DNA of 64,000 nucleotides from Candidatus Multivoradales bacterium. Its GTDB lineage: Bacteria; Acidobacteriota; Thermoanaerobaculia; Multivoradales; Multivoraceae. This document shows, piece after piece, positions 6,464-56,173 of this stretch (its first letter is position 1; the number at the start of each line of letters is the position of its first letter). The notes under the pieces are model-generated. The model had not been told where the DNA came from and did not search any database. It saw nothing but the letters and a program-made list of their open reading frames with translations. The stretch covers positions 768,001 through 832,000 of the forward strand of contig CBDCWI010000001.1 in the NCBI GenBank assembly GCA_965223325.1, read 5' to 3'. The position numbers and the translations under genes were made by a program.

Positions 6464-7750
6464 CCAGAACAACCGTTCCATCGAAGCCAGGAATCCGCCG
6501 CGCGCGACGTATCAGAGAAGTCCGACGTCGCAACTGCAGGGCGAGCGCCAACCGCCAAAGGGCGGCCCCACGGACCGCTTGCGCGGCAAAGGTGACGTTA
6601 GCTGGCCCCGTGGTAAACGCCTCGCCAACAGCGCCAGGTCGCCACTCCAATAGCGCCACGTTCCCAACCAAGGCCCACGTCGAGAAGGCCGAAAACCACG
6701 CTGCCAGCTAGGACACGGCCCTCCCAGAACCGTCGTTCCATCGAAGCCAGGAATCCGCCGCGCGCGACGTATCAGAGAAGTCCGACGTCGCAACTGCAGG
6801 GCGAGCGCCAACCGCCAAAGGGCGGCCCCACGGACCGCTTGCGCGGCAAAGGTGACGTTAGCTGGCCCCGTGGTAAACGCCTCGTCAACAGTGCCAGGTC
6901 GCCACTCCAATAGCGCCACGTTCCCAACCAAGGCCCACGTCGAGAAGGCCGAAAACCACGCTGCCAGCTAGGACACGGCCCTCCCAGAACCGTCGTTCCA
7001 TCGAAGCCAGGAATCCGCCGCGCGCGACGTATCAGAGAAGTCCGACGTCGCAACTGCAGGGCGAGCGCCAACCGCCAAAGGGCGGCCCCACGGACCGCTT
7101 GCGCGGCAAAGGTGACGTTAGCTGGCCCCGTGGTAAACGCCTCGCCAACAGCGCCAGGTCGCCACTCCAATAGCGCCACGTTCCCAACCAAGGCCCACGT
7201 CGAGAAGGCCGAAAACCACGCTGCCAGCTAGGACACGGCCCTCCCAGAACCGTCGTTCCATCGAAGCCAGGAATCCGCCGCGCGCGACGTATCAGAGAAG
7301 TCCGACGTCGCAACTGCAGGGCGAGCGCCAACCGCCAAAGGGCGGCCCCACGGACCGCTTGCGCGGCAAAGGTGACGTTAGCTGGCCCCGTGGTAAACAC
7401 CTCGCCAACAGCGCCAGGTCGCCACTCCAATAGCGCCACGTTCCCAACCAAGGCCCACGTCGAGAAGGCCGAAAACCACGCTGCCAGCTAGGACACGGCC
7501 CTCCCAGAACCGTCGTTCCATCGAAGCCAGGAATCCGCCGCGCGCGACGTATCAGAGAAGTCCGACGTCGCAACTGCAGGGCGAGCGCCAACCGCCAAAG
7601 GGCGGCCCCACGGACCGCTTGCGCGGCAAAGGTGACGTTAGCTGGCCCCGTGGTAAACGCCTCGCCAACAGCGCCAGGTCGCCACTCCAATAGCGCCACG
7701 TTCCCAACCAAGGCCCACGTCGAGAAGGCCGAAAACCACGGGGCCAGCTA
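6464..7750 (+). repeat. Tandem array A: about 4.95 near-identical 260-bp structured units
   Basis: TCGAAGCCAG recurs at 6481, 6741, 7001, 7261 and 7521 with only a few SNPs. Lies between convergent genes; homologous to arrays B and C. Confidence 0.97.
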
Positions 7751-8449
7751 ATAGATCCCGGGGATGAGACCGGCCACCCGCTGCTGGTAGCGCTGGAACT
7801 CGTGCCGGAACATCTGCTCGAGGCAGCGGTCTTCGAGCCCGATGCGTACGATCGAGAGCGGCAAGAGCACCAGGCCAGCGACCACTACCGCAATGCGGCT
7901 CTGCAACAGAATCGCAGCGCCGAAGACGATGAACAGGTTGCCCGCCTCCGAGGGGTGACGCACGATGCCGTAGATGCCGGTCTGTCGCAGCGGCTGCCCA
8001 ATGCGCACCTGAATCCCGCTCACGAAGTACTTGCCGAGCTGGATCCCGGCGACGAAACGCAACAGCACTCCGACCGCCATGAACAGGGCGCCGCTCGCAG
8101 CGAGCAAGCTGAGGGTTGAGGTCCCCGCTGCAGCGTGCTCGAGAACCGCAATCATCAACGCGGCTCCGATCGAAAGCGCAGCGGCAAAGGTCACAAAGCG
8201 GGCCGAGCGACCGTCGACCTTGCGCAGGGTCTCGACGTCATCGGGGCCGCGCAGAACCGCCGGCGTGTCGGCGAGCAGAAAGAGCGTCGCCAGTAGAAGG
8301 AACAGACCCATCGGCACGTCGATCAGTCTTTGATGGCCGAACCAGACGACCGCAGGCAGGACCAGAAGAACGGCGTGCAAGAGAGATCCCAGGCCGGCGG
8401 CCAGCAACACACTCGTTCGAGGGGTGGCGGCGCTGCCCCTCGTCATCAC
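7748..8449 (-). CDS. Isoprenylcysteine carboxyl methyltransferase (ICMT/PEMT) family membrane protein
   Basis: Several TM helices; QLGKYF...LRQTGIYGIVRHPSEAG and RIGLEDRCLEQMF...YQQRVAGLIPGIY. Confidence 0.85.
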   Translation of the reverse strand: MMTRGSAATPRTSVLLAAGLGSLLHAVLLVLPAVVWFGHQRLIDVPMGLFLLLATLFLLADTPAVLRGPDDVETLRKVDGRSARFVTFAAALSIGAALMIAVLEHAAAGTSTLSLLAASGALFMAVGVLLRFVAGIQLGKYFVSGIQVRIGQPLRQTGIYGIVRHPSEAGNLFIVFGAAILLQSRIAVVVAGLVLLPLSIVRIGLEDRCLEQMFRHEFQRYQQRVAGLIPGIY

Positions 8450-9057
8450 TGAACCTCGGTCACTGCGGCAAGCACGCCGCGGAAGTTGGCCTGGGACATT
8501 TGCAGCGTGTCAGCCACTTCCTGCAGAACCTCGAGCTCGCGTCGGGCGATCAGACCGTCGTGGAAGGCCACTTCACACGCCACCCGCATGACCTGTTCCT
8601 TGCCGTGCGCGTTCAAACGACCGGCCACCTCCGACAGGAGTTCCCGAACCAGACCCTCGCGGGGGGAAATCGAGGCGATCTCTTCTTCCAGCGCCGCGAG
8701 ATCGATCTCGATGCCGGTTGCCATGAGTGACATCTCGCAGACCCTTTCGAGCCGAGGACGATTCTCCTGTGCTTCGGAGACCAGAACCACCGCCAGGACA
8801 CCGCGGAGCGCCCGGCTCAGTTCGCTCTCGAAAGTCTCTCTGTCGTAGTGCAGAACGTCATCGCGAAAGGTCTCACGACAGACCGGGCATTCGACGTACT
8901 CGCCGAGAACATCGAGCGGCAGCACGGGAACGAAGTAGAGCGTGAAGAAGCGGCGGGTTCGCTGGCGCATGTAGTCCTGTGGGCTCTCGCAACGGGGGCA
9001 ATGGAATCGACCACGGTCCGTCGTATAGGTCACACCGCGCGTACCGAAAATCACCAT
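8446..9057 (-). CDS. Zinc-ribbon plus TerB-like domain protein
   Basis: MVIFGTR, CPRC...RRFFTLYFVPVLPL...ECPVC; C-terminal VAFHDGLIARRELEVLQEVADTL; overlaps the ICMT start. Confidence 0.8.
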   Translation of the reverse strand: MVIFGTRGVTYTTDRGRFHCPRCESPQDYMRQRTRRFFTLYFVPVLPLDVLGEYVECPVCRETFRDDVLHYDRETFESELSRALRGVLAVVLVSEAQENRPRLERVCEMSLMATGIEIDLAALEEEIASISPREGLVRELLSEVAGRLNAHGKEQVMRVACEVAFHDGLIARRELEVLQEVADTLQMSQANFRGVLAAVTEVQ

Positions 9058-9251
9058 GGTGAAGAGGGCTCCAGAAGGAAAACAAGCTAAATGCCGCGAT
9101 CGACCGGGCCGCAGCGATCGAGGAATAGTATCCTCAGATGGCTATATATGCAAGATTCCCTACCTTCCGGGGAATCGAGTGCCGCGAGCCGCTAGTGCCT
9201 CCGCTCACCAGCCGACGACCGGCCGGCGCGCGGGAGTTGGTGGCGGGGGAC

Positions 9252-10166
9252 TCAGACCGGAACGGAGCGTGTCGGGAAGCGCACTAGCCTCGGTCGAGGG
9301 CGTGCGCTCTCCCGTTCCGGCCGAATCCAGGCGTTACAGCGTTCGAGAAGGTGGGCCAACGCCGGGAGGCTGTGATGACGTGCAGGGCTTCCCGAAGATG
9401 GCTGCTCTTCGAAGGTGAAAAAGCCGTCTTCGAGCTCGAGCGCCGTGCCCACGATCGCCTCGGCCTGCGTCGCCAGCGTTCGTTCGAGGGCGCGTCGTTC
9501 GAGACAGCGCGCCTCGAGCAGCAGATCACCAAGAGAACGCGAGGGTCGTTCTAGTGCCTGACGGCGGAGGGCGCACAGGACATCGTCGGCGCCGGCAAGA
9601 CCCTGGCGGACCAACAGGTCACCCAATCTGGGGCCGCCGTCTTCACGTGCCGATGCGACCGAACCGGCGGCGACCCGCAAAACGACGGTGCGCTGGCGCG
9701 AGATGAACGAGACTCGACCGCTCTTGCCCGATCGCGCCAGCGCCGACAAGAGACGGGCGGCAGTCTGCCCCTCGAGGGCACCAGTCACGCGTAGCGGACC
9801 TGACGGTCCCGCCGTCTCCTCGCGCGCAGGCGACGGCTCCGGGTCCGTCGCCCCGGACTGACGAGGGTGCTCGAGCGCCGGCGGACGCCCTGCGGGCTCC
9901 GGCTCTCGGGGTCCCCTCGGAGGGGCTGCTTCGAGTTCATAGCCCACTCCGGGCTCGAGGTCGAGCACCAGTCCATCACCGGCGTAATCCGTCGCGTCGG
10001 GTTGTCGTTCATGGGCCAAGAGCCAGCTCGTCGCGTCAACGAACGAGTGGTCGTCGTCTCGCCGGGCCCAGCCCAGCCGGAGGGCGAATGAACGGAGACG
10101 GTCGGCAACGGAACGCTCGGACTCGGGGTGTCGCTTCTTCAATTCTTGATCCCGCAGTATCGACAT
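9252..10166 (-). CDS. DUF4388 domain protein
   Basis: VTGALEG...LLSALARSGKSGRV...LGDLLVRQGL...ALRRQ...LGDLLLE...DGFFTFEE. Start chosen at MSILRD; uncertain. Confidence 0.7.
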   Translation of the reverse strand: MSILRDQELKKRHPESERSVADRLRSFALRLGWARRDDDHSFVDATSWLLAHERQPDATDYAGDGLVLDLEPGVGYELEAAPPRGPREPEPAGRPPALEHPRQSGATDPEPSPAREETAGPSGPLRVTGALEGQTAARLLSALARSGKSGRVSFISRQRTVVLRVAAGSVASAREDGGPRLGDLLVRQGLAGADDVLCALRRQALERPSRSLGDLLLEARCLERRALERTLATQAEAIVGTALELEDGFFTFEEQPSSGSPARHHSLPALAHLLERCNAWIRPERESARPRPRLVRFPTRSVPV

Positions 10167-10319
10167 GTCGGAGGATCTTCGACCGGGCAGTGGAACTCTG
10201 GCGCGACGTGCCTGGTGACACGCATCGATACACCGAACCCCCAACCGCTTGTTGAGTCGCGTCAGGATGAACACATCCTGCTGGTGCAGGAGCCCGGCGG
10301 TTGTCGTATTGACTACCAG

Positions 10320-10335
10320 TGCAAAGGGCCTGCCA
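10320..10335 (-). promoter_or_regulatory. Sigma54 (-24/-12) promoter for the DUF4388 gene
   Basis: Minus strand reads TGGCAGGCCCTTTGCA, matching TGGC-N7-TTGCW. Confidence 0.6.
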
Positions 10336-10405
10336 GGCGGCGCGGGTCTGGCTCGTCGGGGCCTCGCTCGAACCGAATGCAGCGCGCTTGACCAAGCGAG
10401 GAGCC

Positions 10406-10660
10406 TCAGGCGCGGTGGGAGCTCTCCAGGATGGCCAGCGCGTGATCGAGCCGCCGCATCTCACGGGTCAGACACAGAACAGCCTGCGGCCGACCGATCG
10501 GTGGCCGACGAATAGGACCACTGAGGAGCTCTGCAACCTGCTGCAGGGCGACCTGGCCACCACGTTCTGCCCATCGGGGGGCACTGGGCGGCATCGGTGC
10601 CTGGGCGGGCCGATGATCGCGCGGCTTCGAGACGACGGAAGACAGTTCGGAGAGTGTCAT
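10406..10660 (-). CDS. Small hypothetical protein
   Basis: ATG 3 bp after the upstream stop; no recognisable motif. Confidence 0.3.
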   Translation of the reverse strand: MTLSELSSVVSKPRDHRPAQAPMPPSAPRWAERGGQVALQQVAELLSGPIRRPPIGRPQAVLCLTREMRRLDHALAILESSHRA

Positions 10661-10663
10661 CGT

Positions 10664-11332
10664 TCAAGCCCCCGCCAGCGCACGACGGAAACCGTCGGTG
10701 GTGACCACTCGATGTACCGCTTCGAGCAGCGCCTCCGAAAGCGCTTCGACATAGGTATCGCGCTCGAAGGAACGCCCGAAGCGCCGTGTGACTCCTCCCG
10801 TTGTGCCGAGGAACCTGGTCTTTCCGAGAGGGTCCGTGGCACGTAGAAGCAGGCCGACCTCGCCCAGGTAGGAGCGATCCTCAGTCACAAACAGCCGTCG
10901 CACTTCTCCACTCAGAACGATGTCGCCGCCGCTCTCGACGACCTCGAGCCCCATTTCCTCCAGGACCAGTCGCACATGCGAAGCGGCCCAATCGGCGACG
11001 TCGTCCTGGGTCGTCACGGGCTGCACGACACCGTCCTCCGCCCAGGTTCGGTTCTCGCCAACCAGGGCCGGGTTCGCTCGGCGATCAACAAAGTCGGCGA
11101 CCTCGATCCGCATCTGTCCCCACCCGGTGAGATCGATCGGCCCGAGTTCGGCGAGCTCCGTCACCGGGCGCCAGGACAAATCGAGTTCTCCCAAGACGCT
11201 TCCCATGTCGCGTCCAGCGAGCGCGTTCTGCATCGAAACCACGTGGGTCAAGGCTGCGAGCATGAACAAGGTCACCGCGAGGATGGTGATCGATCGTTCC
11301 TGTTGGTCCAGGTCGGTGGAATCGGCTTTCAT
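10664..11332 (-). CDS. Exported or membrane-anchored hypothetical protein (possibly YajG-like fold)
   Basis: N-terminal hydrophobic helix; IEVADFVDRR, DIVLSGEVRRLFVTE, EALSEALLEAV; sigma70-like promoter upstream. Confidence 0.65.
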   Translation of the reverse strand: MKADSTDLDQQERSITILAVTLFMLAALTHVVSMQNALAGRDMGSVLGELDLSWRPVTELAELGPIDLTGWGQMRIEVADFVDRRANPALVGENRTWAEDGVVQPVTTQDDVADWAASHVRLVLEEMGLEVVESGGDIVLSGEVRRLFVTEDRSYLGEVGLLLRATDPLGKTRFLGTTGGVTRRFGRSFERDTYVEALSEALLEAVHRVVTTDGFRRALAGA

Positions 11333-11400
11333 GACAGGACAGGCTCCGGTGTGCGCGAGGAAGGAAGCCCCAGAGCAAACAGAGGGGCCGCTCTGTCTTG

Positions 11401-11471
11401 AAACTAGTTTAACTAGTGTATCGTGTCAACCTCCTTAATTCCTTTTTTCGATTATATCTCGTATATAATCG
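11401..11471. promoter_or_regulatory. Divergent promoter region with two operator-like palindromes
   Basis: Minus strand TTGACA-N17-TAGTTT (11429-11401) overlapped by ACTAGT-TTA-ACTAGT. Perfect inverted repeat CGATTATAT-N5-ATATAATCG (11449-11471) covers a plus-strand TATAAT. Confidence 0.65.
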
Positions 11472-11504
11472 GAACCCCGATCGGCAGCCGCCGTCGCAAG
11501 CGCC

Positions 11505-11690
11505 ATGAACACACGCTCAGCCCAGCAAACCACCAGCCCCGAGGATCTCGCTCGGGGGGGCAAGCGTTCCCGGCTGGTTGGCGCCGCCGCGACCCTGATC
11601 GCAGTCGCCGCCTGCTGCCTGGCCGGCCAGCCGGCCCTCGGAGTCCTCAGCGGCATGATCGTCGGTGGCATCGTGCTCCTGGTCTCCTGA
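11505..11690 (+). CDS. Small two-helix membrane protein
   Basis: 61 aa with two hydrophobic segments; TATAAT about 35 bp upstream. Confidence 0.5.
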   Translation: MNTRSAQQTTSPEDLARGGKRSRLVGAAATLIAVAACCLAGQPALGVLSGMIVGGIVLLVS

Positions 11691-11721
11691 GGGGAAACGC
11701 TGGGGAGCACGAATCCCTCTG

Positions 11722-12009
11722 CTAGCGCGCGTCGCGAATCGCGGTGCCGAGCGCCGCGGCACTCTCAGCGACGGCAGCACGGTCTTCGAGAAAGCGTGAG
11801 AGCTGGAAGAAGGCATGCATCATGCCGTCGAAGCGGTGCACGGTGACCGGCACACCTGCCTCACACAACTTGCGACCGTAGGCCTCGCCTTCGTCGCGAA
11901 GCGGATCGAACGCGGCGGTAGTGATGAAAGCCGGTGGCAGATCAGCCAACGAGGCCGCCAGGATCGGCGATGCACGATCGTCGTCTCGAGCTGCGGCGTC
12001 GGGAAGATA
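11722..12009 (-). pseudogene. 3' remnant of an HSL-family alpha/beta hydrolase (esterase)
   Basis: YLPDAAARDDDRASPILAASLADLPPAFITTAAFDPLRDEGEAYG...FDGMMHAF. In-frame TAG at 12028-12030; no HGGG/GDSAG half visible upstream. Confidence 0.75.
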
Positions 12010-12181
12010 GCTCGGGGGTCTGTTCCGCTATCGGAGGGACCTGGTTCAGAGCGGCGACAGCGAGCTGAGCGTCAACGAACTTCTGCGCATCTGGGGTGAA
12101 GCGGCATCGAGACGACCTCCGCGAGTTGAACGTCCGCCCGGTAGCGGCGCTCCACCCTACCGCGCGGTGGCTCCCCGATGA

Positions 12182-13183
12182 TTACGTCGGGGCAAGTGCC
12201 GGAGTCAGCTTGCCAACCGCCACCAGCGCGCTTCGGCCGCCGACTCCGACCGCGGTCACCCGCCCACTCTGTTTCCGGGCGCTTGCCCAGAGCTGACTCG
12301 GGCGGCCCATCTCGATCCCCTGGTGCAGAAGCCATTCGAAGTCGCCGTCGGGCGCCGCCTCGAGACTGGCCAGGAGACCGGCCAACACACAAGCGGCGCT
12401 GCCGGTCGCGGGGTCCTCAGTGACGCCCGCCCCGGGCGCGAACATACGCACGCGCAGGTCGGGCCCTTCTTCCGAGTCAGCCGGGATGCCAACCTCACGC
12501 GTATACAGGCTGATCCCGGTCGGCACCAACGCGCCCGGCTCATCCAGCGGACCTCCAAGAGCAGCGCCGAGCAGCGCTGGCGAAGGTGTTGCGCGAGCGA
12601 GCGCCGCCAGCGTGGCGACTTCGGCGACCCCGAAACTGACCCCCGAGCGCACCTGGCAGGGCGGGTGAAGCGACGTCACCAGGTCGCGTTCCTCTAGACC
12701 AACTGCCGCTGCGACCGCCGGCACTTCGAGGTCCGCGAGACGTTCGAACCCCTGTGGCGCAGTCAGCCGACAGAAACCCGGGCGCCAGCCGACTTTGCCC
12801 TCTTCGAGCTCGACCTCGATCGGCACCAGGCCGGCGTCTTCGTCGAAGGTCACCGTGACGCGTGGCGGCTGCCCCCCGTTCGCCGGGTGCACTCCGAGTT
12901 CCTCGGGATCGAGGTAGCCGGCCTCGAGAAGCGCGAAGGCGGTTCCCAGGTTCGGGTGACCGGCAAACGGTAACTCGAGCTCGGGCGTGAAGATCCGCAC
13001 GCGGCGATTGGCGTCATTGCGATGCGACGGAAGAACGAAGGTCGTTTCGGAAAAGTTGAGCTCCTTGGCAATCGGTTGCAGCAGCTCAACCGGTATGCCC
13101 TCGGCTTGCGGAAAGACTGCCAGCTGATTCCCAGCCAGGGCCTGGTGGGTAAAGACGTCGACTAGCAGGAAGGCGGGATTCAC
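12182..13183 (-). CDS. PhzF family epimerase/isomerase
   Basis: VDVFT...GNQLAV, ELNFSETTFV, RIFTPELELPFAGHPNLG, EDPATGSA, QGIEMGRPS; GTG start overlaps the msrB stop. Confidence 0.92.
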   Translation of the reverse strand: MNPAFLLVDVFTHQALAGNQLAVFPQAEGIPVELLQPIAKELNFSETTFVLPSHRNDANRRVRIFTPELELPFAGHPNLGTAFALLEAGYLDPEELGVHPANGGQPPRVTVTFDEDAGLVPIEVELEEGKVGWRPGFCRLTAPQGFERLADLEVPAVAAAVGLEERDLVTSLHPPCQVRSGVSFGVAEVATLAALARATPSPALLGAALGGPLDEPGALVPTGISLYTREVGIPADSEEGPDLRVRMFAPGAGVTEDPATGSAACVLAGLLASLEAAPDGDFEWLLHQGIEMGRPSQLWASARKQSGRVTAVGVGGRSALVAVGKLTPALAPT

Positions 13184-13635
13184 CCTTCGTCCTCGGGCTC
13201 GAAGCGAAGAGCGACACCGTTGTTGCAGAAACGCTGGCCGGTCGGCTGCGGGCCGTCTGCGAAGACGTGACCCTGGTGACCGCCACAACGTACGCAGTGG
13301 TACTCGGTGCGAGGAACCACGAGCTTCCAGTCACGACGTGTCTCCAGGCGCCCCGGCAGCGCGGTATGGAAACTCGGCCAACCGGTACCACTGTCGTACT
13401 TGGCATCCGAGTGAAAGAGCGCCAGGCCACACCCGGCGCAGCGAAACACCCCACGGCGCTTCTCGAGGTTGAGCGCCGAGGTACCGGCAGGTTCAGTTCC
13501 TTCACGACGTAAGACCTGATAGGCGGCCGGCTCGAGCTCCGCCCGCCACTCTTCGTCGCTCTTGGTGATTGGTGCCAGCTCCTCCTCGTCGCTCGAGGCG
13601 GCGGTGGCCCTGCGATCGTCAACAGGCTCGGTCAT
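13180..13635 (-). CDS. msrB: Peptide-methionine (R)-S-oxide reductase
   Basis: EEWRAEL...YQVLRREGTE, CAGC, KYDSGTGWPSF, RTEYHCVRCGGHQGHVFADGPQPTGQRFCNNG. Alternative start at 13650. Confidence 0.95.
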   Translation of the reverse strand: MTEPVDDRRATAASSDEEELAPITKSDEEWRAELEPAAYQVLRREGTEPAGTSALNLEKRRGVFRCAGCGLALFHSDAKYDSGTGWPSFHTALPGRLETRRDWKLVVPRTEYHCVRCGGHQGHVFADGPQPTGQRFCNNGVALRFEPEDEG

Positions 13636-13642
13636 TTTGGTC

Positions 13643-13718
13643 GTTCCCATCTTCGGAGGTAGTTCCCATCTTCGGAGGTTCTTTCCATCTTCGGAGGTTC
13701 TTTCCATCTTCGGAGGTT
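13643..13718. repeat. 19-bp tandem repeat (4 copies plus degenerate copies) upstream of msrB
   Basis: (G/C)TT(C/T)CCATCTTCGGAGGT(A/T) at 13643, 13662, 13681 and 13700. Confidence 0.9.
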
Positions 13719-13963
13719 CGTCCCCTCCGGTAGGTCGCTGGCTTCCGCAGGGTCGGGGCCATGCTAGACCGCAGCCGCCCGGCGATTGGTCCTGGCACCA
13801 GCCTTGCGATGTCTGGTGGTTGTTGGAGCGTCGCACACGGTGGGCAGCAGGTTCCGCCAAACGACTCGCAGCGAGCCGCCGAAACCTGCGAATCCTCCCG
13901 CGTCGTTTCGGTGCGGCCCATGCCCCGTTTCTTTCCCGTTTGCTCTCCGAAGGAGTCCCCGCA

Positions 13964-14335
13964 GTGATTGACTTCAAAGATGCCCTCCCAGAGTTCTACG
14001 CTGAAATCAAGGCCGGCCTTGTTGCCTCAGGGAACCCCGACCTCGCGCGTGCCCTGGCGGCGCACAAGATTGCCCGTCAGAACTGGAACGCCCATCACGG
14101 CCGTATCGGGCTGGTGCCCGGTCCACCGCTGCCCGCCAACAGCAACTCCGTGCAAAGAGCTTCTAAATCAGGCGTCTTTCGCTGGTTGGACGTGAGCGTG
14201 TCGCGCGGCACGGTCGAAGTGCACCTCGATGGGGAGGACCGAGTCGCCGGACTCGAGGTGTTCAATCGGGCCGACGTGGCCGCCGCCCTCGCGCGCGCCG
14301 GCGTCCCCGAGGCGCCGATCGCGGCAACGATCTGA
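13964..14335 (+). CDS. Hypothetical protein
   Basis: AAGGAG then GTG at 13964; protein-like sequence IDFKDALPEFYAEIKAGL...VAGLEVFNR. Confidence 0.65.
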   Translation: MIDFKDALPEFYAEIKAGLVASGNPDLARALAAHKIARQNWNAHHGRIGLVPGPPLPANSNSVQRASKSGVFRWLDVSVSRGTVEVHLDGEDRVAGLEVFNRADVAAALARAGVPEAPIAATI

Positions 14336-14403
14336 TCGTCCCTCGACCGTCGCCAGGGCCCTCATGGCCGGCAGGGTCGGCTGGGAGGATTTGGTAGGTT
14401 CCC

Positions 14404-15318: not shown

Positions 15319-15442
15319 GGGTTCTCAGGCTGGATTCGGGGTTTTTCGGTTTTTTTGAGGCTACCGCGGAAAACCGGCTGGCAGCAGACTCCTATGGGAG
15401 TGCAAGGGGGAGAAACCCCCGGAATCACAGGCCCCAAACGCC

Positions 15443-16377: not shown

Positions 16378-16410
16378 CCCCTTCCACTCTTGGGGGTGGA
16401 AGGGGTTTCT
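16378..16410. terminator. Terminator-like hairpin between convergent genes
   Basis: CCCCTTCCAC...GTGGAAGGGG followed by TTTCT. Confidence 0.55.
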
Positions 16411-16433
16411 GGCCGGACCGGGATCTTGCTGTC

Positions 16434-28437: not shown

Positions 28438-28439
28438 GG

Positions 28440-47503: not shown

Positions 47504-47686
47504 TGAGTCATTGGGGGGGCGCCAAGCGTCCAACGCCCCCCGGGCCCGAATGTGCGGGGGAGCCAGCGCGACCCGACCGCGGTACTGTGACAGACACCAT
47601 CGCACCTTATGGACCCGTTGCGAACCGGACACCAGAGGAACGTCGCTTTCGAAACTGCCCCTGTCTAGCGCAGAAAGGACTCCGTC

Positions 47687-49183
47687 GTGAGACGCACCCC
47701 ACACACTCACCCGCTGAGAATCCTGGCCTTTAGAAAACCAGCCCGCGGGGCAACGCTTTATGACCCACCCGCCGCGTTGGGCGCTCTGTTGATCGCCGCC
47801 ACGGTCGTTTGCGCTGCCTCGGTCACCGCGCAGCGGGTCGAGTACCCGGCCACCGAGTTCACCGAACGCCGCGCCCGCCTGTGCGAAGCACTCCGGGCGG
47901 CATCGGCTGAGCCAGCTGGCGGTGCAGCGCTCCTGTTCTCGGCCACCCTGCCGCGCTACGGCGTTCGATTTCGGCAAGACCACGACTTCTACTACGCCAG
48001 CGGTGTCGAAAGTCGCAACGCCGCACTGCTCATCGACGTCGCAACCTGTGACGCCCACCTCTTTCTGCCGGTTCTCGGCGAGCGCGAGAAGTTCATCGAC
48101 GGCCCCAACTGGCTCGATCGTCCCCAGGAGGGAATCGACCGCGGCTTCGCCACCGTGCAGCCGGTGACATACCTGCCGGAAGCCCTCGCCCGCCGTCGTG
48201 GGCGTGGCGGCCCGCAGGGAGACCTCACCCTGTGGATGCGGCTCTCTGAGCGTGACGAGATCGACCTTTCACGCTCGGAGAAGGGAATCTTTCTTGGGCG
48301 GCGCGAAGGCGGGCCGCTGGGTGGCCTCCCGTCTGAGAGTTCGCAACAGGTCGAGACCCTGCGGGCGCGTTACCCGCAGTACGAGATCCGCGACATCGCA
48401 CCGAAACTCGACACCTTGCGCATGATCAAGACCGCGCGCGAGATCAAAGCACTCAGGCAGGCAGGTCGCGTTTCGGCCAACGGCATCGGGCGGGCAATCG
48501 CGGTCACCAGGCCGGGCCTCTACGAGTACGACCTCGAGGCCGAGGCCAAGCATGTCTTCTTGAAGGGCGGCGCCGAAATGGAGGCCTACCCGGCCATCGT
48601 CGGTTCGGGGCCCAACGGCAACATCTGGCACTGGAACAAGAACGACCGGGTGCTCGAGGCCGGCGACATGATCGTGATGGACTATGGCGGCTCGTTCGGC
48701 TACCAGACGATGGACATCACCCGCACCTGGCCGGTCAGCGGCCGTTTCGACGACATCCAGAAGCGCGCCTACAAAGCGGTGCTCGAAGCCCAGAAGGCCA
48801 TCATCGAGGCGATGGTGCCCGGTGCAACCAGGGCCGAAACGACTGCCATCTGCCGTGAGATCTACGACCGTCACGGCTTCCAGGACAAGCCCGCCCACGG
48901 CGCTGGGCACTTCGTCGGCATGTCTGTACACGATGTCGGCGACCCCGACCTGCCCTTCGCACCTGGCATGGTGATCGCGGTCGAACCGATCATCGAGATC
49001 CCCGAATACAACATCCACGTGCGCATCGAGGACACCGTCCTGATCACCGAAGGTACGCCCGAGAACCTGAGCATCGGCGTACCCAAAGAAGTCGACGAAC
49101 TCCTCGCCCTGGTCGGTTCCGCGAGCCGCCCTCGAGAGGGAGCGGCGAGCGACGCCACAACCGCCGGTCAGCGTGACGTTTGA
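47687..49183 (+). CDS. Xaa-Pro aminopeptidase (M24) family, exported
   Basis: FRQDHDFYY, RMIKTARE, MDYG, DITRTWP, GHFVGMSVHD, EP, VRIEDTVLIT. Confidence 0.92.
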   Translation: MRRTPHTHPLRILAFRKPARGATLYDPPAALGALLIAATVVCAASVTAQRVEYPATEFTERRARLCEALRAASAEPAGGAALLFSATLPRYGVRFRQDHDFYYASGVESRNAALLIDVATCDAHLFLPVLGEREKFIDGPNWLDRPQEGIDRGFATVQPVTYLPEALARRRGRGGPQGDLTLWMRLSERDEIDLSRSEKGIFLGRREGGPLGGLPSESSQQVETLRARYPQYEIRDIAPKLDTLRMIKTAREIKALRQAGRVSANGIGRAIAVTRPGLYEYDLEAEAKHVFLKGGAEMEAYPAIVGSGPNGNIWHWNKNDRVLEAGDMIVMDYGGSFGYQTMDITRTWPVSGRFDDIQKRAYKAVLEAQKAIIEAMVPGATRAETTAICREIYDRHGFQDKPAHGAGHFVGMSVHDVGDPDLPFAPGMVIAVEPIIEIPEYNIHVRIEDTVLITEGTPENLSIGVPKEVDELLALVGSASRPREGAASDATTAGQRDV

Positions 49184-49214
49184 CCCGATTCGACCAAGCC
49201 AACGGAGCTCCGAC

Positions 49215-50552
49215 ATGACACCAAGACCATTCCTTCGCCGGGCCGTGTGCTCTCTCCCACTTCTCGCGTTCTGCATCGGAGGGGCTGTGCTTTCGTCACC
49301 CGCTCAGGCGGCGTCAGAGAATGCAGCACACCAGAGAATCGAGGAGTCCGCCCTGGCAGTCGAAGACCGGGTCATCGCCTGGCGGCGCGACATTCACCAG
49401 AACCCCGAACTCGGCAACCGCGAGTTCCGCACCGCGAAGCTGGTGGCAGACCATCTAAGGGCCCTGGGCCTCGAGGTCACGACTGAGGTCGCTCACACCG
49501 GTGTCGTCGGTGTCCTCCATGGGGGCAAACCGGGACCGACCGTCGCCCTCCGCGCCGACATGGACGCCCTCCCGGTCAGAGAACGGGTCGACCTGCCCTT
49601 CGCCTCCAAGATCGAGAGCGAGTACGCCGGCCAGAAGGTCGGCGTGATGCACGCCTGCGGCCACGACAATCACGTCGCGATTCTGATGGGCGCCGCCGAG
49701 GTTCTAGCCGGGATGCGTGAGGACCTTCCCGGCACCGTCAAGTTCATCTTCCAGCCAGCCGAAGAAGGGCCACCGCCAGGAGAAGAAGGTGGAGCCAAGA
49801 TGATGATCGCCGAAGGTGTCCTCGAGGACCCGGCGCCGGAGGCGATCTTCGGCCTGCACGTCGGCCCGACTCCACCGGGTTTGATCAGCTACCGCCCCGA
49901 GGGGGCCCTGGCAGCTGCCGACGGTCTCCAGATCGTCGTCGAGGGGAGGCAGACCCACGGCTCTTCGCCCTGGCGGGGCGTCGATCCGATCATCGTCTCG
50001 GCGCACATCATGGTCGCCCTCCAGGCCATTCCCAGCCGGCAGCTCGACATCACGCGCGCCCCCGCGGTGGTCACCATCGGCAGAATTCATGGCGGTGTGC
50101 GCGGCAACATCATTCCCGACTCAGTCGAAATGACCGGCACCATTCGTACGTTCGACACCGCCATGCGCGACGACTTCCTCGAACGCATCAAGAGAACCGC
50201 CGAGAGCATTGCCGAAGCTTCGGGTGCCAAGGCTACCGTCACCATCGACCCGTACGCGCCGGTGACCTGGAACGATCCGGCACTCACCAAGCGCATGCTG
50301 CCAACCCTCGAATGGGCGGCGGCTGGCAACGTCTTCGAGTCGCCGCCCATCATGGGTTCTGAGGACTTCGCGTTCTTCCAGGAGAAGATCCCCGGGGTCT
50401 ACTTCTCGCTTGGCGTCAACAAGGAAGGGGTCTCACCGGCTGAAGCCGCGCCAAACCACTCGCCGCTGTTTTACGCCAACGAAGACGCGCTGATCGTCGG
50501 GGTGCGAGCCATGGCTGGCATGGCGTGGGACTTTCTCACGGACGCCAACTGA
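49215..50552 (+). CDS. M20D family amidohydrolase, exported
   Basis: RRDIHQNPELG, LRADMDALP, MHACGHD, FQPAEEG, SEDFAF, NHSP. Confidence 0.93.
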   Translation: MTPRPFLRRAVCSLPLLAFCIGGAVLSSPAQAASENAAHQRIEESALAVEDRVIAWRRDIHQNPELGNREFRTAKLVADHLRALGLEVTTEVAHTGVVGVLHGGKPGPTVALRADMDALPVRERVDLPFASKIESEYAGQKVGVMHACGHDNHVAILMGAAEVLAGMREDLPGTVKFIFQPAEEGPPPGEEGGAKMMIAEGVLEDPAPEAIFGLHVGPTPPGLISYRPEGALAAADGLQIVVEGRQTHGSSPWRGVDPIIVSAHIMVALQAIPSRQLDITRAPAVVTIGRIHGGVRGNIIPDSVEMTGTIRTFDTAMRDDFLERIKRTAESIAEASGAKATVTIDPYAPVTWNDPALTKRMLPTLEWAAAGNVFESPPIMGSEDFAFFQEKIPGVYFSLGVNKEGVSPAEAAPNHSPLFYANEDALIVGVRAMAGMAWDFLTDAN

Positions 50553-50572
50553 ACCGCGACCTGAGTCTAGTC

Positions 50573-51295
50573 ATGCGAATCTTGCTGCTACAGGCGCGCA
50601 CCGAGGGTGACCCCACTCGGGTGGAGGAGCGTGAGTCGTTCGCGCGTCACAGTGGAGTGGAAACCGAAGCGATTGAGCCCTGGGATCTCCTCGAGGGCCC
50701 CCCGAGCCTCGCCGACCTCGCGCCCTACGACGCAGTGATGGTTGGCGGCGCGGGTGAGTTCTACGTCTCGAAGGGCGATCTGCCCCATCAAGAACGATTC
50801 TTCGACCTGCTCCTCGAACTCACCGTGACCGGGCCACCGACGTTCGCCTCGTGCTTCGGTTTTCAGTGTCTCGTCGAAGCGGCGGGCGGAGAGATCGTGC
50901 ACGATGCTGAGGGCCTGGAGGTGGGGACCTACCCACTCGAACTCACCGCCGCGGGCCAGGCCGACCCGCTCTTTGGCCATCTGCCGCACACGTTTCTCGC
51001 CCAGATGGGGCGCAAAGATCGAGCAACCCGGCTGCCCGATGGCTGGCAGAATCTTGCCAGTAGTTCTCTCTGTCCCTTCCAGGCGACGCGGGTTCCCGGG
51101 CGACCCTTCTGGGCGTCGCAGTTTCATCCGGAGCTCGATCAGGAGGGAAACCTGGGCCGTTTCAAGCGCTACCTCGACGGCTACGCGGCGGCGATGACCG
51201 AACAAGAGAAGTACAAGGCGTTCGACAATTACCAGCCAACGCCCGAGACCGCCGAGATCCTGACCATCTTCCTCGACCTGGTCCGTCGAGGGTAG
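50573..51295 (+). CDS. Type 1 glutamine amidotransferase-like protein
   Basis: Cys-His-Glu triad in ASCFGFQ and QFHPE. Confidence 0.88.
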   Translation: MRILLLQARTEGDPTRVEERESFARHSGVETEAIEPWDLLEGPPSLADLAPYDAVMVGGAGEFYVSKGDLPHQERFFDLLLELTVTGPPTFASCFGFQCLVEAAGGEIVHDAEGLEVGTYPLELTAAGQADPLFGHLPHTFLAQMGRKDRATRLPDGWQNLASSSLCPFQATRVPGRPFWASQFHPELDQEGNLGRFKRYLDGYAAAMTEQEKYKAFDNYQPTPETAEILTIFLDLVRRG

Positions 51296-51567
51296 GTGAG
51301 AGCCGCAAAAGAACTCCTGGGGCGAGCGCCCTGCACCTCTGACCGCAAACTTCGATGATCCGTCGCGCCCCTTGAATCGAGTCGAAACTCACCCCTTCGG
51401 CGGCTGCTGCTGGTAACCTCGACCACAACGATAAAGAGCCGCCTCGATGCGCCGGGTTGCAGCGTGTAGCGAACCAGCTACCGGTGCCGGGTGAGTGCGT
51501 GCCAGTGCTCGGGCCATCTGGGCCGCGAGACTGGCTGAGGGGCTAAAGCCACTTGGAGGACCAAACC

Positions 51568-51930
51568 ATGGGTGAAATTTTCGACAAAGCAAAAGAGAAG
51601 GTCGGCAACGTTGCAGACAAGGTCGGCGATGCCGCCGAAGCAGCGGTCGACAAAGTCGGTGACGTCGCCGAGGCTGCCATCGACAAGGCTGGTGACATCA
51701 CCGAAGCCGGCGTCGACACCGCCAAGAACGTCGCGGGCAAGGTCGGTGACGCCGCCGAAGGCGCCTGGGACAAAGCAACCGACGTGGCCGACGCCGCAGT
51801 CGACAAGGTAGAGAACATCGCCGAAGCCGCAGTCGACAAGGCCGATGACATCAAAGACGCAGCAGCCGACAAAGTGGCAGCCGCCGCTGAGAAGGTCCAG
51901 GACGTCGCCGAGGACGCCAAGGGCGACTAG
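51568..51930 (+). CDS. LEA-like/YtxH-like protein with 11-residue amphipathic repeats
   Basis: GGAGG ribosome-binding site; repeats of DKVGDAAEAAV, DKVGDVAEAAI, DKATDVADAAV. Confidence 0.8.
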   Translation: MGEIFDKAKEKVGNVADKVGDAAEAAVDKVGDVAEAAIDKAGDITEAGVDTAKNVAGKVGDAAEGAWDKATDVADAAVDKVENIAEAAVDKADDIKDAAADKVAAAAEKVQDVAEDAKGD

Positions 51931-53001
51931 GTTGCGATGGTCGTGGTTGCGGCCTGCGGGTCGCGCTCCATCGTTTCTTGAGACCTTGGGGTTGGGGTTG
52001 CGATCGTGGCTTCGTCAGAATGGCGTTACCACGACCATCGCAACCGATCACTCTTGCGGGGCAAGCGGTCCGCCCGGCGGGCCGTCTTCCATGGCGGCCG
52101 CCTTGCAGTTGCGGCATAGGACTGCAAAGTTCCGGCGCGCCCCGCGGATTCGTGCCTCCGATGGAACGATGATCGTGAATGTTGCGGCCTGCGGGTCGCG
52201 CTCCATCGTTTCTTGAGACCTTGGGGTTGGGGTTGCGATCGTGGCTTCGTCAGAATGGCGTTACCACGACCATCGCAACCGATCACATTTGCGGGGCAAG
52301 CGGTCCGCCCGGCGGGCCGTCTTCCATGGCGGCCGCCTTGCAGTTGCGGCATAGGACTGCAAAGTTCCGGCGCGCCCCGCGGATTCGTGCCTCCGATGGA
52401 ACGATGATCGTGAATGCTGCGGCCTGCGGGTCGCGCTCCATCATTTCTTGAGACCTTGGGGTTGGGGTTGCGATCGTGGCTTCGTCAGAATGGCGTTACC
52501 ACGACCATCGCAACCGATCACTCTTGCGGGGCAAGCGGTCCGCCCGGCGGGCCGTCTTCCATGGCGGCCGCCTTGCAGTTGCGGCATAGGACTGCAAAGG
52601 GCCGGCGCGCCCCGCGGATTCGTGCCTCCGATGGAACGATGATCGTGAATGCTGCGGCCTGCGGGTCGCGCTCCATCGTTTCTTGAGACCTTGGGGTTGG
52701 GGTTGCGATCGTGGCTTCGTCAGAATGGCGTTACCACGACCATCGCAACCGATCACATTTGCGGGGCAAGCGGTCCGCCCGGCGGGCCGTCTTCCATGGC
52801 GGCCGCCTTGCAGTTGCGGCATAGGACTGCAAAGTTCCGGCGCGCCCCGCGGATTCGTGCCTCCGATGGAACGATGATCGTGAATGCTGCGGCCTGCGGG
52901 TCGCGCTCCATCGTTTCTTGAGACCTTGGGGTTGGGGTTGCGATCGTGGCTTCGTCAGAATGGCGTTACCACGACCATCGCAACCGATCACTTTTGCCGC
53001 G

Positions 53002-54911
53002 ATCGCGGTAGGAGCGCCGGTTGCCCGGCGCCCCCCGCACAGATCCCAGCGTGCACTGCTAATGCACTGGGCTCCTGCCTCAGGTATTGACGACAAGTCG
53101 CTCATCAGGCCAGGGATGTTGGACTCGGGCTTTGGGTAGGTAGTGGGCCACCAGGGCCCACATCCGTTTCCAGGACGTGCGGTCTTTGTCACTGCGTCGG
53201 CGCAGAGCGCGCATCCAGTGCCGAATGACCTCCTGTCGAAAGGCGTTCAACGCCGCTGAGTTGCCGGGTACGCCGTAGTAGGCATTGAAGCCTCGCACCA
53301 CGGATCCCAGCCAGAGACCTTGCTCTGGTAGCGGCGAGTGTCGGTGTCCCAGAAGGGCCGTACCGACAGCCTTCAGTGTCCTGCGGATTCGGTGGCGGCT
53401 CGTGATGCGCTTCAGCAAGAACCTCCCTCGACTAGACTGCGCACAGCAGTGCGTAAAGCCTAGAAACTCGAAGGTCTCCGGCCGCCCGAGACCTCGCGCG
53501 CGTCGGTTGTAGGCCGCAAAGCGGCCAAACTCCAGCAGGCGCGTCTTCTCGGGTTGGATCTCCAACGAGAAGTCACGGAGTCGCAGGTTCAGTTCCTCGA
53601 GGAATCGTTCTGCCTCCTCCTGCCTCTCAAATCCAACGATGAAGTCATCCGCGTAGCGCACGAAGATCATGTCCCCAAGCGCGTTGCGTTTCCTCCACTG
53701 CTGGACCCAGAGATCGAGCACGTAGTGCAGGTACACGTTCCCGAGGAGAGGCGAAATCGTCGCCCCCTGAGGAGTCCCCCGCGTGCTCGCGTGCCACTTA
53801 CCGTCTTCCATCACTCCGGACCTCAGCCATTTCTGGATGAGGCGAAGGATCCTACGGTCTCCGATACGGTGCTCGAGAAACTTCACCAGCCACTCGTGGT
53901 CCAGGGCATCGAAGAACCCACGAATGTCTGCGTCGAGCACCCAGTTCACCTTCCGCTTTGTGATTCCAACGAATAGCGCATCCAAAGCATCGTGCTGGCT
54001 GCGGCCTCGCCTGAATCCGTATGAGTACCCGAGAAAGTCTTCCTCGTAGATCGCATCCAACACCGAGACGACGGCGCGCTGAAGGATCTTGTCCTCCAAC
54101 GTGGCGATGCCAAGCGGTCGGAACCGCCCATCCGATTTCTCGATGTAGACGCGACGAGTCGCACTCGCCCGGTAGCTCCCACGGTGGACACGAGAGTGCA
54201 GGTCCTCGAGATTGCTCAGCAAAGATTCTGCGTACTCGCTCCATGACACTCCGTCCACTCCTGCCGCTGCGTCTCGGTGCAACACGTCAAATGCGCTCCG
54301 GAGTCGCTCGACCGTGATGTGGTGAAGAAGCGCTGTGAACTTCACTTCCTTGCCCCTGCGGGCGGCTTCTCGTACACGGCCCAGCGCATTGCTCGCACTC
54401 TCCATCCGGCTCTGTGTCCGGGGTGCGTTTTGCTTGCCCGTGTTCCCCTTGGCCAGGCCCCTTCCCTCCACCGCCTCCGCCGCTGGTCTCCCACCGTTGT
54501 TCGACGACTTCGCAGGTACTACGGGCCTGTCTGACTTCCGCCATCCGTGCGTCATCGGCTTACGGCCTCTAGCCTTCCCGATGCGGACCAGATACCCAAC
54601 TGGCCAGATCGCGGATCTCCCGGTTCTCGCGCATGGAGATTCCACACATGCACAGGGTCTACGACCGCGGGGAGTCGCCGCAGAGCTCGCGATAGCGCGC
54701 TACGGAGTCTCGCCTTCCGCTTCGCTTGACAGCGTCGGCACTCCCAAATTCTTATTTCGCGGCTCAATACCCGGCCTGTGTGTGCCCCTGTCAACGCTTC
54801 ACCGCACCCTCGCGGGAGCCGGCGCATGACTCGGGGACCCTCTGGGTCGCTACCCCTTCGAGGGTGGGACTCTCTCATTCCTTTCTCCATGCCGGTTTAT
54901 CCCGGCGTATC
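53002..54911 (-). mobile_element. Group II intron, 1910 bp, probably bacterial class E
   Basis: Domain V GAGCCCAGTGCATTAGCAGTGCACGCTGGGATC (53074-53042); domain VI hairpin with bulged A ending CTACCGCGAT; EBS1 stem-loop GCCGACGCTGTCAAGCGAAGCGGAAGGC; removal restores a full-length repeat unit with no target duplication. Class assignment is inference. Confidence 0.92.
53080..54405 (-). CDS. ltrA: Group II intron reverse transcriptase/maturase (no endonuclease domain)
   Basis: KFTALLHH, AAGVDG, RPLGIATLEDK, SYGFR, DADIRGFFD, GTPQGATISPLLGN, RYADD, FLGFTH; X domain ending HPWP. Confidence 0.95.
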   Translation of the reverse strand: MESASNALGRVREAARRGKEVKFTALLHHITVERLRSAFDVLHRDAAAGVDGVSWSEYAESLLSNLEDLHSRVHRGSYRASATRRVYIEKSDGRFRPLGIATLEDKILQRAVVSVLDAIYEEDFLGYSYGFRRGRSQHDALDALFVGITKRKVNWVLDADIRGFFDALDHEWLVKFLEHRIGDRRILRLIQKWLRSGVMEDGKWHASTRGTPQGATISPLLGNVYLHYVLDLWVQQWRKRNALGDMIFVRYADDFIVGFERQEEAERFLEELNLRLRDFSLEIQPEKTRLLEFGRFAAYNRRARGLGRPETFEFLGFTHCCAQSSRGRFLLKRITSRHRIRRTLKAVGTALLGHRHSPLPEQGLWLGSVVRGFNAYYGVPGNSAALNAFRQEVIRHWMRALRRRSDKDRTSWKRMWALVAHYLPKARVQHPWPDERLVVNT

Positions 54912-55246
54912 CAAGCGGTCCGCCCGGCGGGCCGTCTTCCATGGCGGCCGCCTTGCAGTTGCGGCATAGGACTGCAAAGTTCCGGCGCGCCCCGCGGATT
55001 CGTGCCTCCGATGGAACGATGATCGTGAATGGTGCGGCCTGCGGGTCGCGCTTCAACATTTGGTAGCGTTCACGGTTGGCACCCTACCGAAGCCAGGTCG
55101 AAACCCCTCAACCCGACGTCAGTACCAAACCCGAGAGTGGCAACCCAGAGGCCAATCGATAGACGGCTTCAGAACTCCACTCCAACACGTCCTACCAAAC
55201 GCTGGAGCGCGACCCGGCCGATCCGCCGATCTGAAGAAGAGCGCTC

Positions 55247-56173
55247 CATCGAGGCACGAATCCGCGGGGCGCGCCGGAACTAGGCAGTCCAAAACCGCAA
55301 CTGCAGGGCGGCCGCCATGGAACACGGCACGCGCTACGGACCGCTTGCCCCGCAAAGGTGACCAGTAGCGATGGTCGTGGTAACGACCCGACGCCGAAGC
55401 CACATCGCAACCCCAACTCCAACGTCCTACCAAACGTTGAAGCGCGACCCACAAGCCGCTACCACGATCATCGCTACATCGGAGGCACGAATCCGCGGGG
55501 CGCGACGGAACTAGGCAGTCCAAAACCGCAACTGCAGGGCGGCCGCCATGGAACACGGCACGCGCTACGAACCGCTTGCCCCGCAAAGGTGACCAGTAGC
55601 GATGGTCGTGGTAACGACCCGACGCCGAAGCCACATCGCAACCCCAACTCCAACGTCCTACCAAACGTTGAAGCGCGACCCACAAGCCGCTACCACGGTC
55701 ATCGCTACATCGGAGGCACGAATCCGCGGGGCGCGACGGAACTAGGCAGTCCAAAACCGCAACTGCAGGGCGGCCGCCATGGAACACGGCACGCGCTACG
55801 GACCGCTTGCCCCGCAAAGGTGACCAGTAGCGATGGTCGTGGTAACGACCCGACGCCGAAGCCACATCGCAACCCCAACTCCAACGTCCTACCAAACGTT
55901 GAAGCGCGACCCACAGGCCGCTACCATGGTCATCGCTACATCGGAGGCACGAATCCGCGGGGCGCGACGGAACTAGGCAGTCCAAAACCGCAACTGCAGG
56001 GCGGCCGCCATGGAACACGGCACGCGCTACGGACCGCTTGCCCCGCAAAGGTGACCAGTAGCGATGGTCGTGGTAACGACCCGACGCCGAAGCCACATCG
56101 CAACCCCAACTCCAACGTCCTACCAAACGTTGAAGCGCGACCCACAGGCCGCAACAACCACGACCATCGCTAC
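55247..56173 (+). repeat. Tandem array C: four 231-bp units, inverted relative to array B
   Basis: GAGGCACGAATCC recurs at 55251, 55482, 55713 and 55944; degenerate partial units in 55060-55246. Confidence 0.96.

Follow-up and report, generated by a model that had tools for sequence, protein, structure and literature searches.

What are the tandemly repeated units, with periods of 231 to 260 bp, that occur in three places in a 64,000-nt stretch of the genome of Candidatus Multivoradales bacterium (Acidobacteriota; assembly GCA_965223325.1, contig CBDCWI010000001.1, positions 768,001-832,000; hereafter, the window), and why do they lie where they do? The genome that holds the window has 6.69 Mb, 64% GC and two contigs (C1 and C2). 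An earlier note on this DNA described the three arrays (A, B and C) as one family of structured non-coding units. The arrays are real: Tandem Repeats Finder (TRF), run on the window, delineates array A at 6474-7750 (260 bp x 4.9, 99% matches), array B at 51948-52997 (235 bp x 4.5, 98% matches) and array C at 55242-56178 (231 bp x 4.0, 97% matches), with units 97-99% identical, and the shared blocks and both stems quoted in the note are present in the sequence. Beyond this first description, the analysis reveals 67 loci of the family, arrays that are secondary, a terminal hairpin placed on the stop codon of the adjoining gene, and a kinship in kind with repetitive extragenic palindromic sequences (REPs), bacterial interspersed mosaic elements (BIMEs) and REP doublets forming hairpins (REPINs). 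The family is a dispersed non-coding structured repeat, which we tentatively read as having spread by copy-and-paste to gene ends and as being kept there as a gene-end RNA module.

A genome-wide family with a conserved fold

A three-round nhmmer search of the whole genome, seeded with units of arrays A and C, detects the core 173 times, at 67 loci that are spread over both contigs and include arrays A, B and C. Most of the loci are tandem, with 2-7 units at a spacing of 128-377 bp, and about 25 are solitary. The full unit (~250 nt) consists of a short leader and a ~140-nt core, followed by GTGA(C/T), a linker of 1-3 nt and a hairpin, P2. The core contains the invariant blocks TCCGC, CAGGGCG and CCGCTTGC. 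In P2, the 5' arm xTAG-N7-CGTGGT and the 3' arm ACCACG-N7'-CTAx enclose a loop of mostly 78-82 nt and form 17-18 bp in total. There are two core subtypes, the second of which has a divergent 5' part and an additional hairpin (C5-loop-G5) inserted after helix P1 of the core. The 3' module, i.e., GTGAY, 1-4 nt and TAG-N7-CGTGGTA, has 71 exact matches in the genome compared to none for the backwards pattern, and at several positions (C2 1640895, C1 1218265 and 1222505, C2 90912, and C2 1789791) the same module is joined to a different core.

The fold was analyzed in an alignment of 31 type 1 terminal units, each from a different locus, for which RNAalifold predicts P1 (10 bp with a UU bulge) and P2 (17 bp) and no other helix. 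Pairing is observed in 96.3% of the 834 cells compared to 80.0 +/- 0.9% in shuffles; 15 of the 27 pairs are changed on both sides (10.0 in shuffles), the number of double-change cells is 124 (33.6 in shuffles), and the covariation score is 0.395 (0.096 in shuffles). For each of five covariation measures, none of the 500 shuffles reaches the observed value, and when the partners are slid by 1-3 columns, only 30-45% pairing remains. Identity between loci is 68% in the core, 92% in the P1 strands and 51% in the loop, and as low as 42-43% in the 7 variable nucleotides of the arm; despite this divergence of the arms, 31 of the 42 terminal hairpins are perfect (17/17). The units are non-coding, and compensatory changes have preserved their fold. 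The proposal of the earlier note that the units are under selection for their fold is strengthened by the larger alignment, in which covariation grew, and its view of them as non-coding holds as well, given that conservation tracks pairing and that the array periods are mostly not multiples of 3. The statement that stem 2 pairs despite sequence change needs one correction, in that pairing is perfect only in the last unit of each array (17/17); the inner units of array A retain 14 of the 17 P2 pairs.

The interior of P1 yields no consistent helix in a column-pair scan, in averaged pair probabilities or in single-sequence folds; inspection by eye suggests candidate small helices in the P2 loop (CGACC/GGUCG and GGCC..GGCC) and in the P1 interior. 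The P2 loops are rich in C (39.9%) and poor in G (21.5%), with a median C/G ratio of 1.875 compared to 1.0 for the genome, and 67% of them exceed the 95th percentile of this ratio in the genome. Covariance-model scans against Rfam 15 (self-cleaving ribozymes included) of the window, array A and six units identify no family to which the units could be assigned: at gathering scores, the window matches group II introns only; array A, at E<=10, gives four HOTTIP_1 rows with 14.8-14.9 bits; and six units of both subtypes, at E<=1, give two miRNA rows far under the cut-offs, the latter two results being at chance level. In keeping with the earlier note, which could assign the units to no known family, no described RNA, REP or MITE (miniature transposable element with inverted repeats) family matches.

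The tandem arrangement is secondary. Among the terminal units (n=41), 15-17 of the 17 arm positions match and 30 units are perfect, whereas in the inner units (n=48) ACCAC is retained at an unchanged distance, but the median is about 10/17 matches, and 15 is reached in only 3 cases. The duplicated segment varies by locus and may take in the upstream flank, truncated cores or higher-order units. Given that the inner units lack the outer 3' arm and that the unit boundaries differ between loci, the arrays arise through local tandem duplication. Tandem clusters of REPs and REPINs likewise reiterate with their flanks according to passages of two published descriptions (PMC3733652, PMC3116915).

Other repeats are found in the same genome. 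A whole-genome TRF scan for periods of at least 100 bp identifies 68 arrays, of which 38 are at family loci, 5 within gene calls and 25 in other intergenic positions; the latter have periods of 105-386 bp, and a few of them carry a 3' module composed of GTGAC and a hairpin with a different core. A short repeat, in which TTCCCGGGC-like units are followed by AATCGACTGGGG, is present at C1 421654-422827, C2 1050415 and C2 1722622, and downstream of C1 1306394; at C1 421-422 kb, it is inserted within family cores, between core positions 61 and 75.

Terminal hairpins and the stop codons of adjoining genes

Examination of the gene neighborhoods, with crude GC3-filtered open reading frames (ORFs) as gene calls (3979 genes), shows that at 63 of the 67 loci, the hairpin end is followed by an opposite-strand gene; genome-wide, convergent downstream neighbors account for 38% (p = 0.011). 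On the upstream side, 36 loci have a co-directional gene and 31 an opposite one. In 34 of the 42 terminal hairpins, an opposite-strand ORF of at least 97 codons (median 310) ends at a stop codon inside the 3' arm; in 5 more, it ends 1-6 nt beyond the arm, and in 3 it ends nowhere near. A mirror control, for which the element-strand TAG in the 5' arm is taken instead, yields 5 of 42. Where the stop codon at a locus is TGA or TAA, both hairpin arms carry that codon. Genome-wide, the 3979 calls end with TGA (2246), TAG (1506) or TAA (227); the share of TAG, 38% (compared to 56% for TGA and 6% for TAA), seems high at 64% GC.

The C-terminal tails of the adjoining proteins were compared with a genome of the same genus, for four tails, all taken from plus-strand matches, of three genes with orthologues that are 34-66% identical. 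An ICMT-like protein and its homolog (34% identity) both end with ..LIPGIY, with TAG here and TGA there; a second protein has the same length in both genomes, ending with ..GRTFN here and ..GRSFA in the relative; and an amidase is one amino acid shorter than its orthologue. The C-terminal residue is thus at the same position in two of the three orthologue comparisons, and the stop codon within the terminal hairpin marks the native C-terminus in the cases checked. In the same-genus genome, the site that corresponds to that of the second gene is empty, with about 30 nt between two convergent genes. One protein query detected no orthologue.

The foot of the hairpin follows the gene. Position x coincides with the last codon's wobble base and takes part in pairing in 31 of 31 sequences; it is C in 22 cases, G in 13 and T in 2 to 3. 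P2 pairing extends into the last codon by one extra pair in 24 of 44 hairpins and by two in 1 of 44, when about a quarter would be expected for one. Identical N7 stretches are found at different genes, namely, ..TAGCGAGGGG.. at four loci and ..TAGCGCGCCC.. at two; these loci differ in x and the linker, which fit the last codon of each gene. At two loci that share near-identical arms and 7 flank bases, the adjoining proteins show no similarity. The presence of the same arms at unrelated genes, with differing x and linker, indicates that the arms travel with the element and that the foot is locus-specific.

A C-terminal phenylalanine is found in 13 of 39 adjoining proteins compared to 134 of 3979 genome-wide (p = 2.6e-10), a 10-fold excess. 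The neighbors include outer-membrane barrels (an autotransporter, two TonB-dependent receptors, a DUF481 protein, and weak matches to OMP_b-brl and ShlB) along with non-barrel proteins (MBOAT, PilX, an FeS-assembly protein, IMPDH, a class II aminoacyl-tRNA synthetase and a histidine kinase). Given this mixture, the excess probably reflects a site preference (TTC-TAG) rather than a functional theme.

Base pairing also identifies the strand that folds. The 47 distinct hairpins with at least 13 of 17 matches contain 773 Watson-Crick pairs; on the element strand, G.U is seen 16 times and A.C, the equivalent of G.U on the opposite strand, 2 times. In the 42 terminal hairpins, there are 8 G.U pairs and 1 A.C pair, evenly split between loci with a co-directional and a divergent upstream gene. 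In array C, the inner-unit 3' arms show no differences from the perfect arm other than transitions, all of which retain G.U on the element strand. This excess shows that the strand called sense in the earlier note is the one selected for pairing, and so the folding strand is antisense to the adjoining gene. Insertion into the lagging-strand template gives transposable elements of the IS200/IS605 type, which move as single-stranded DNA (ssDNA), a replication orientation bias. For the family, comparison with replichores defined by GC skew detects no such bias, which would be expected of IS200/IS605-derived palindrome-associated transposable elements (PATEs): about half of the loci lie on each strand within a replichore, and genes are also split approximately 50:50. 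Accordingly, the orientation of the element follows the adjoining gene and not replication. The strand-specific G.U pairs, together with the lack of replication-strand bias, lean towards RNA rather than ssDNA as the folding molecule.

The group II intron, the window and signs of mobility

A group II intron, matching Rfam RF02005 with 180.6 bits at 54655-54873 (minus strand), interrupts array B. The genome contains 14 full copies of this intron, the one in the window and 13 others, that are 99.8-100% identical and encode a reverse transcriptase (RT) with the RVT_1 domain only; the intron is active-looking. In 13 of the 14 copies, the intron splits a family core at a single site within the 3' strand of P1 (..CCGCTTG^CGCCGC..) and has the orientation of the element, so that the family is the homing site of the intron; the fourteenth copy is in a site with a 5' exon ending with ..GCGCTTG. 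For the copy in array B, the 3' exon begins with bases that resemble other arrays and not B, which suggests co-conversion from another array.

The features of the window are listed in Table 1. Arrays B and C (51931-56173), with about 82% identity, occupy the space between two convergent genes in head-to-head orientation. The foot of the array B hairpin has changed on both arms to TTG/CAA from TAG/CTA, as found in array C, and the stop codon is located just outside the arm. The gene anchored to array B encodes a protein with 11-residue repeats (..DKVGDAAEAAV..) and weak apolipoprotein/YtxH-like matches. The P2 loop in the terminal unit of array A is C-rich and consists of 80 nt. A 19-bp tandem repeat is present at 13644-13724 (4.3 copies, 91% matches). 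In contigs from four public runs of the same organism, mainly the intron, which is multicopy, and parts of the arrays are represented; four B units are skipped in one contig of low depth, most likely through assembly collapse. These contigs bear neither on expression nor on variation between strains.

Table 1. Array elements and adjoining genes in the window (positions are those of the window)
Feature	Position	Strand	Description	Basis
Array A	6455..7751	+	4.9 units of 260 bp; core starts 6474, 6734, 6994, 7254, 7514	TRF, nhmmer and covariance-model matches
Helix P1, last unit of A	7537..7627	+	7537-7546 GCCGCGCGCG pairs with 7616-7627 CGCTTGCGCGGC; UU bulge; encloses conserved interior, ~70 nt	RNAalifold, pair counts in the 31-locus alignment
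Terminal hairpin P2 of A	7638..7751	+	arms 7638-7654 TTAGCTGGCCCCGTGGT and 7735-7751 ACCACGGGGCCAGCTAA; 17/17 pair	
ICMT/PEMT-like membrane protein gene	7748..8449	-	TAG stop 7748-7750 within 3' arm of the terminal hairpin of A	
125-aa repeat-protein gene	51553..51930	+	33-nt repeats; TAG stop 51928-51930 immediately adjoins terminal hairpin of B	
Array B, main part	51931..53001	-	4.5 units of 235 bp; P2 arms 52028-52044 and 51931-51947; 17/17 pair	
Group II intron	53002..54911	-	RT ORF 53080-54645 (RVT_1); splits B unit in 3' strand of P1 (..CCGCTTG^CGC..)	
5' part of split B unit	54912..55050	-	core positions 1-104 plus leader	sequence, junctions
Array C	55242..56173	+	4 units of 231 bp; P2 arms 56058-56074 and 56157-56173; 17/17 pair	
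Amidase gene	56170..57591	-	TAG stop 56170-56172 within 3' arm of the terminal hairpin of C	

Outside this genome, the family was not found in the collections searched and, so far, appears to be species-specific. A covariance model of the family that scores the genome's own copies at 129-157 bits detects nothing real in 40 relatives, including the same-genus genome, or, with laxer filters, in three genomes (best score 18.5 bits); in 150 genomes of the order, it yields two matches at 27-28 bits, both without the invariant blocks. A strict pattern of 24 positions, which recovers 72 copies in the own genome, matches two stretches in species-representative genomes and four in metagenome contigs, all with 16.3 bits or less under the covariance model; these public collections may leave out records of the window's own genome. 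The 3'-module pattern has no match in 39 of the 40 relatives and a lone match in the remaining one, and the plasmid and phage collections contain no family match.

The signatures of known mobile elements were sought as well. The 5' boundary of the elements is ragged, and no flanking direct repeat or target-site duplication was found; the MITE arrangement, with terminal inverted repeats at both ends and a target-site duplication, is not seen, P2 being wholly within the 3' half of the unit. The genome has 28 matches to the Y1 HUH transposase family (PF01797), mostly in open frames of 300-350 amino acids, many of them in two clusters, C1 2126128-2143849 (near the contig end) and C2 4455510-4486968. 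Only 1 of these 28 genes is within 3 kb of a family locus, so that the REPIN arrangement, in which the REP-associated tyrosine transposase (RAYT) gene is flanked by the same repeats, is not observed; the flanks of the Y1 genes hold other repeats, e.g., ..GAAAGTCCCCCCGAC.. and ..CCCCGACCGTGCGCGGCATCGCCGCGCG... One arm resembles the flanking DNA of several Y1 genes over 21 nt, a likeness estimated to be at chance level, and a loose single-arm motif is commoner in a reversed-genome control and hence uninformative.

Possible origin and role, and the nearest known systems

The tentative reading given at the outset can be spelled out as follows. A non-autonomous element would spread to stop codons, supplying or replacing the stop, with TTC-TAG preferred, and each locus would then be kept in place as a gene-end RNA module; such maintenance at each locus is suggested by the diverged copies that retain perfect, strand-specific pairing. 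Transcripts running towards the 3' end of the adjoining gene would fold P2 exactly at the gene border, where the ~80-nt C-rich, G-poor loop could act as a Rho entry site. Such transcripts might be stopped and/or stabilized at the 3' end, with the effect that no antisense RNA would cross the coding region. It is the composition of the loop and the position at the gene border that suggest this putative role of an RNA boundary, which is predicted from sequence. Several observations weigh against it. At 31 of the 67 loci, there is no co-directional upstream gene to feed read-through transcription, and the crude gene calls impose a caveat on all the neighbor counts. Neither a sigma-70-like promoter nor an intrinsic terminator is predicted in array A, and P2 is not followed by a U tract. 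The interior of P1 has no consistent fold, which leaves the core without a role in this reading. Furthermore, a 17-bp stem hardly needs an 18th pair and yet often has one, and this extension into the last codon hints at a mechanical, not selective, origin of the complementarity. A bolder version, under which a stop-codon-seeking element inserts exactly at the stop, has a 14-fold preference for genes ending with Phe and donates the stop, after which the hairpin foot is matched to the last codon of each host gene and the RNA caps the gene border from the antisense side, would involve a novel mode of insertion and gene-boundary RNAs of a new class, not a REP derivative; we consider it unlikely.

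The main rival is a selfish REPIN- or BIME-like element without a host function, in which the one-strand hairpin with the xTAG foot is an ssDNA substrate of a trans-acting HUH enzyme (Y1, RAYT/IS200-like) or another recombinase, and the perfect arms result from the needs of mobility or from templated correction of quasipalindromes. This is possible, if somewhat doubtful. The genome does encode the 28 Y1_Tnp (PF01797) matches, G.T is the best-tolerated mismatch in ssDNA too, and the family, which is lineage-specific, varies in copy number and serves as a tolerated intron landing pad. Passages of the published descriptions add that GTAG-tagged REPs give TAG stops to flanking ORFs, lie for the most part between unidirectional or convergent ORFs and reiterate in tandem with flanking DNA (PMC3733652), and that REPIN hairpins show compensatory changes and form tandem clusters including the flanks (PMC3116915). 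This explanation is weakened by the location of the Y1 genes, away from family loci with one exception and flanked by other repeats, by arms that are 42-43% identical between loci, unlike REP masters, and by the lack of replication-strand bias, as well as by the perfect hairpins that old, diverged copies keep.

Distinctly less likely are arrays of stable small RNA genes composed of the P1 domain and P2 that would act as a trans riboregulator or a protein sponge, or as a cis antisense RNA pairing with the stop region and the 3' untranslated region (UTR) of the neighbor. Tandem multicopy small RNA genes are known, and the family is likewise multicopy. The blocks TCCGC, CAGGGCG, CCGCTTGC, GTGA and GTGGTA are invariant and single-stranded, the fold is strand-specific with a constant loop length of ~78-82 nt, and the 3' arm, given where it lies, is the complement of the neighbor's mRNA over the last codon, the stop and 13 nt; against these features stand the absence of a promoter-like site in array A, first units without a conserved upstream sequence, 13 copies split by the intron, inner units that lack a full P2, and unit boundaries that vary between arrays. 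Alternatively, the element could belong to the 3' UTR of the anchored gene, the hairpin in the mRNA serving from the stop codon as a terminator, a stabilizer or a sensor of translation termination, as described for REPs near stop codons. The stop codon of that gene is indeed the sole constant of the context, and P2 is palindromic, so that both strands can fold (RNAalifold energies -53.47 and -53.32); this explanation is nonetheless improbable because the G.U pairs of the element strand would be A.C on the gene-sense strand (16 versus 2 overall, 8 versus 1 in terminal hairpins) and the inner-unit variants of array C keep pairing on the element strand only. Protein-coding repeats or an assembly artefact are very hard to reconcile with the data: long open frames span the arrays in this 64% GC genome, and the period of array C, 231, is a multiple of 3, but most of the array periods (128-377) are not, 1- and 2-base indels separate the loci, conservation tracks base pairing and not codons, and public runs of the same organism yield contigs that cover parts of the arrays.

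Dispersed gene-end repeats (REP, BIME, REPIN and the interspersed repetitive units of mycobacteria, MIRUs) are known from a few phyla, and their choice of site is still unclear. With more than 40 independent loci at which the hairpin foot lies base-exact on the stop and co-varies with the stop and the last codon, the present family makes targeting and maintenance directly testable; it is unusually large and well structured among such repeats and is also the natural homing site of an active-looking group II intron. Integron attC sites are another hairpin found downstream of a gene, often over its stop, with conserved boxes at the foot and near the loop and a variable complementary stretch in between; the folding strand of attC is antisense to the gene, and some group II introns target attC. 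The marks of attC also include extrahelical bases and the integrase IntI. The family appears to differ from attC in that the foot xTAG...CTAx does not read as an R-box (GTTRRRY; R''/R' RYYYAAC/GTTRRRY) and in lacking a single cassette array or a link to an integrase, its neighbors including housekeeping genes, e.g., for IMPDH and a class II aminoacyl-tRNA synthetase. MIRUs measure 46-101 bp, occupy several dozen intergenic loci in mycobacteria with variable tandem copies and end exactly on a delimiting codon of the neighbor, as the family does. According to a passage of a published account (PMC12548453), they are in sense orientation, with a coupled small ORF and start codons, whereas the family is antisense, non-coding and tied to stop codons.

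The closest likeness is to GTAG-tagged REP/BIME sequences, 20-40 bp palindromes with a conserved sequence reported in the Planctomycetes-Verrucomicrobia-Chlamydiae (PVC) superphylum (Di Nocera et al. 2013, PMC3733652). As far as the passages considered describe them (PMC3733652), these are extragenic, present in high copy and mostly located downstream of ORFs, between convergent or unidirectional genes, carry a TAG tetranucleotide at the foot of the stem-loop that is often the neighbor's stop, and reiterate in tandem with flanking DNA. The location is shared, with 173 copies at 67 loci, 63 of which adjoin the 3' end of an opposite-strand gene. In contrast to the short palindrome of REPs, the family has a unit of ~250 nt with 17-nt arms about 80 nt apart, arm middles that differ at each locus, an attached conserved core of 140 nt and a base-paired xTAG. 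REPs carry a GTAG or CGTC tetranucleotide at one end; xTAG at the foot of P2 is most often CTAG, then GTAG and TTAG, with TGA or TAA where the neighbor's stop differs. With REPINs, as portrayed in passages of Bertels and Rainey 2011 (PMC3116915), the family shares two inverted sequences that form one long hairpin, a conserved spacer length, the non-autonomous character, compensatory changes on both sides and tandem clusters with flanks. REPIN arms are near-identical to the master and the RAYT gene is flanked by the repeats, in the same passages (PMC3116915), whereas the arms of the family are 42-43% identical and none of the 28 Y1 genes is flanked by it. Thus, when compared via the published descriptions, the nearest known kinds are GTAG-tagged REP/BIME and REPIN; given that the short conserved palindrome and the flanking RAYT gene were tested for and are absent, the family is kept apart from the named families and belongs to the broader kind of gene-end repeats.

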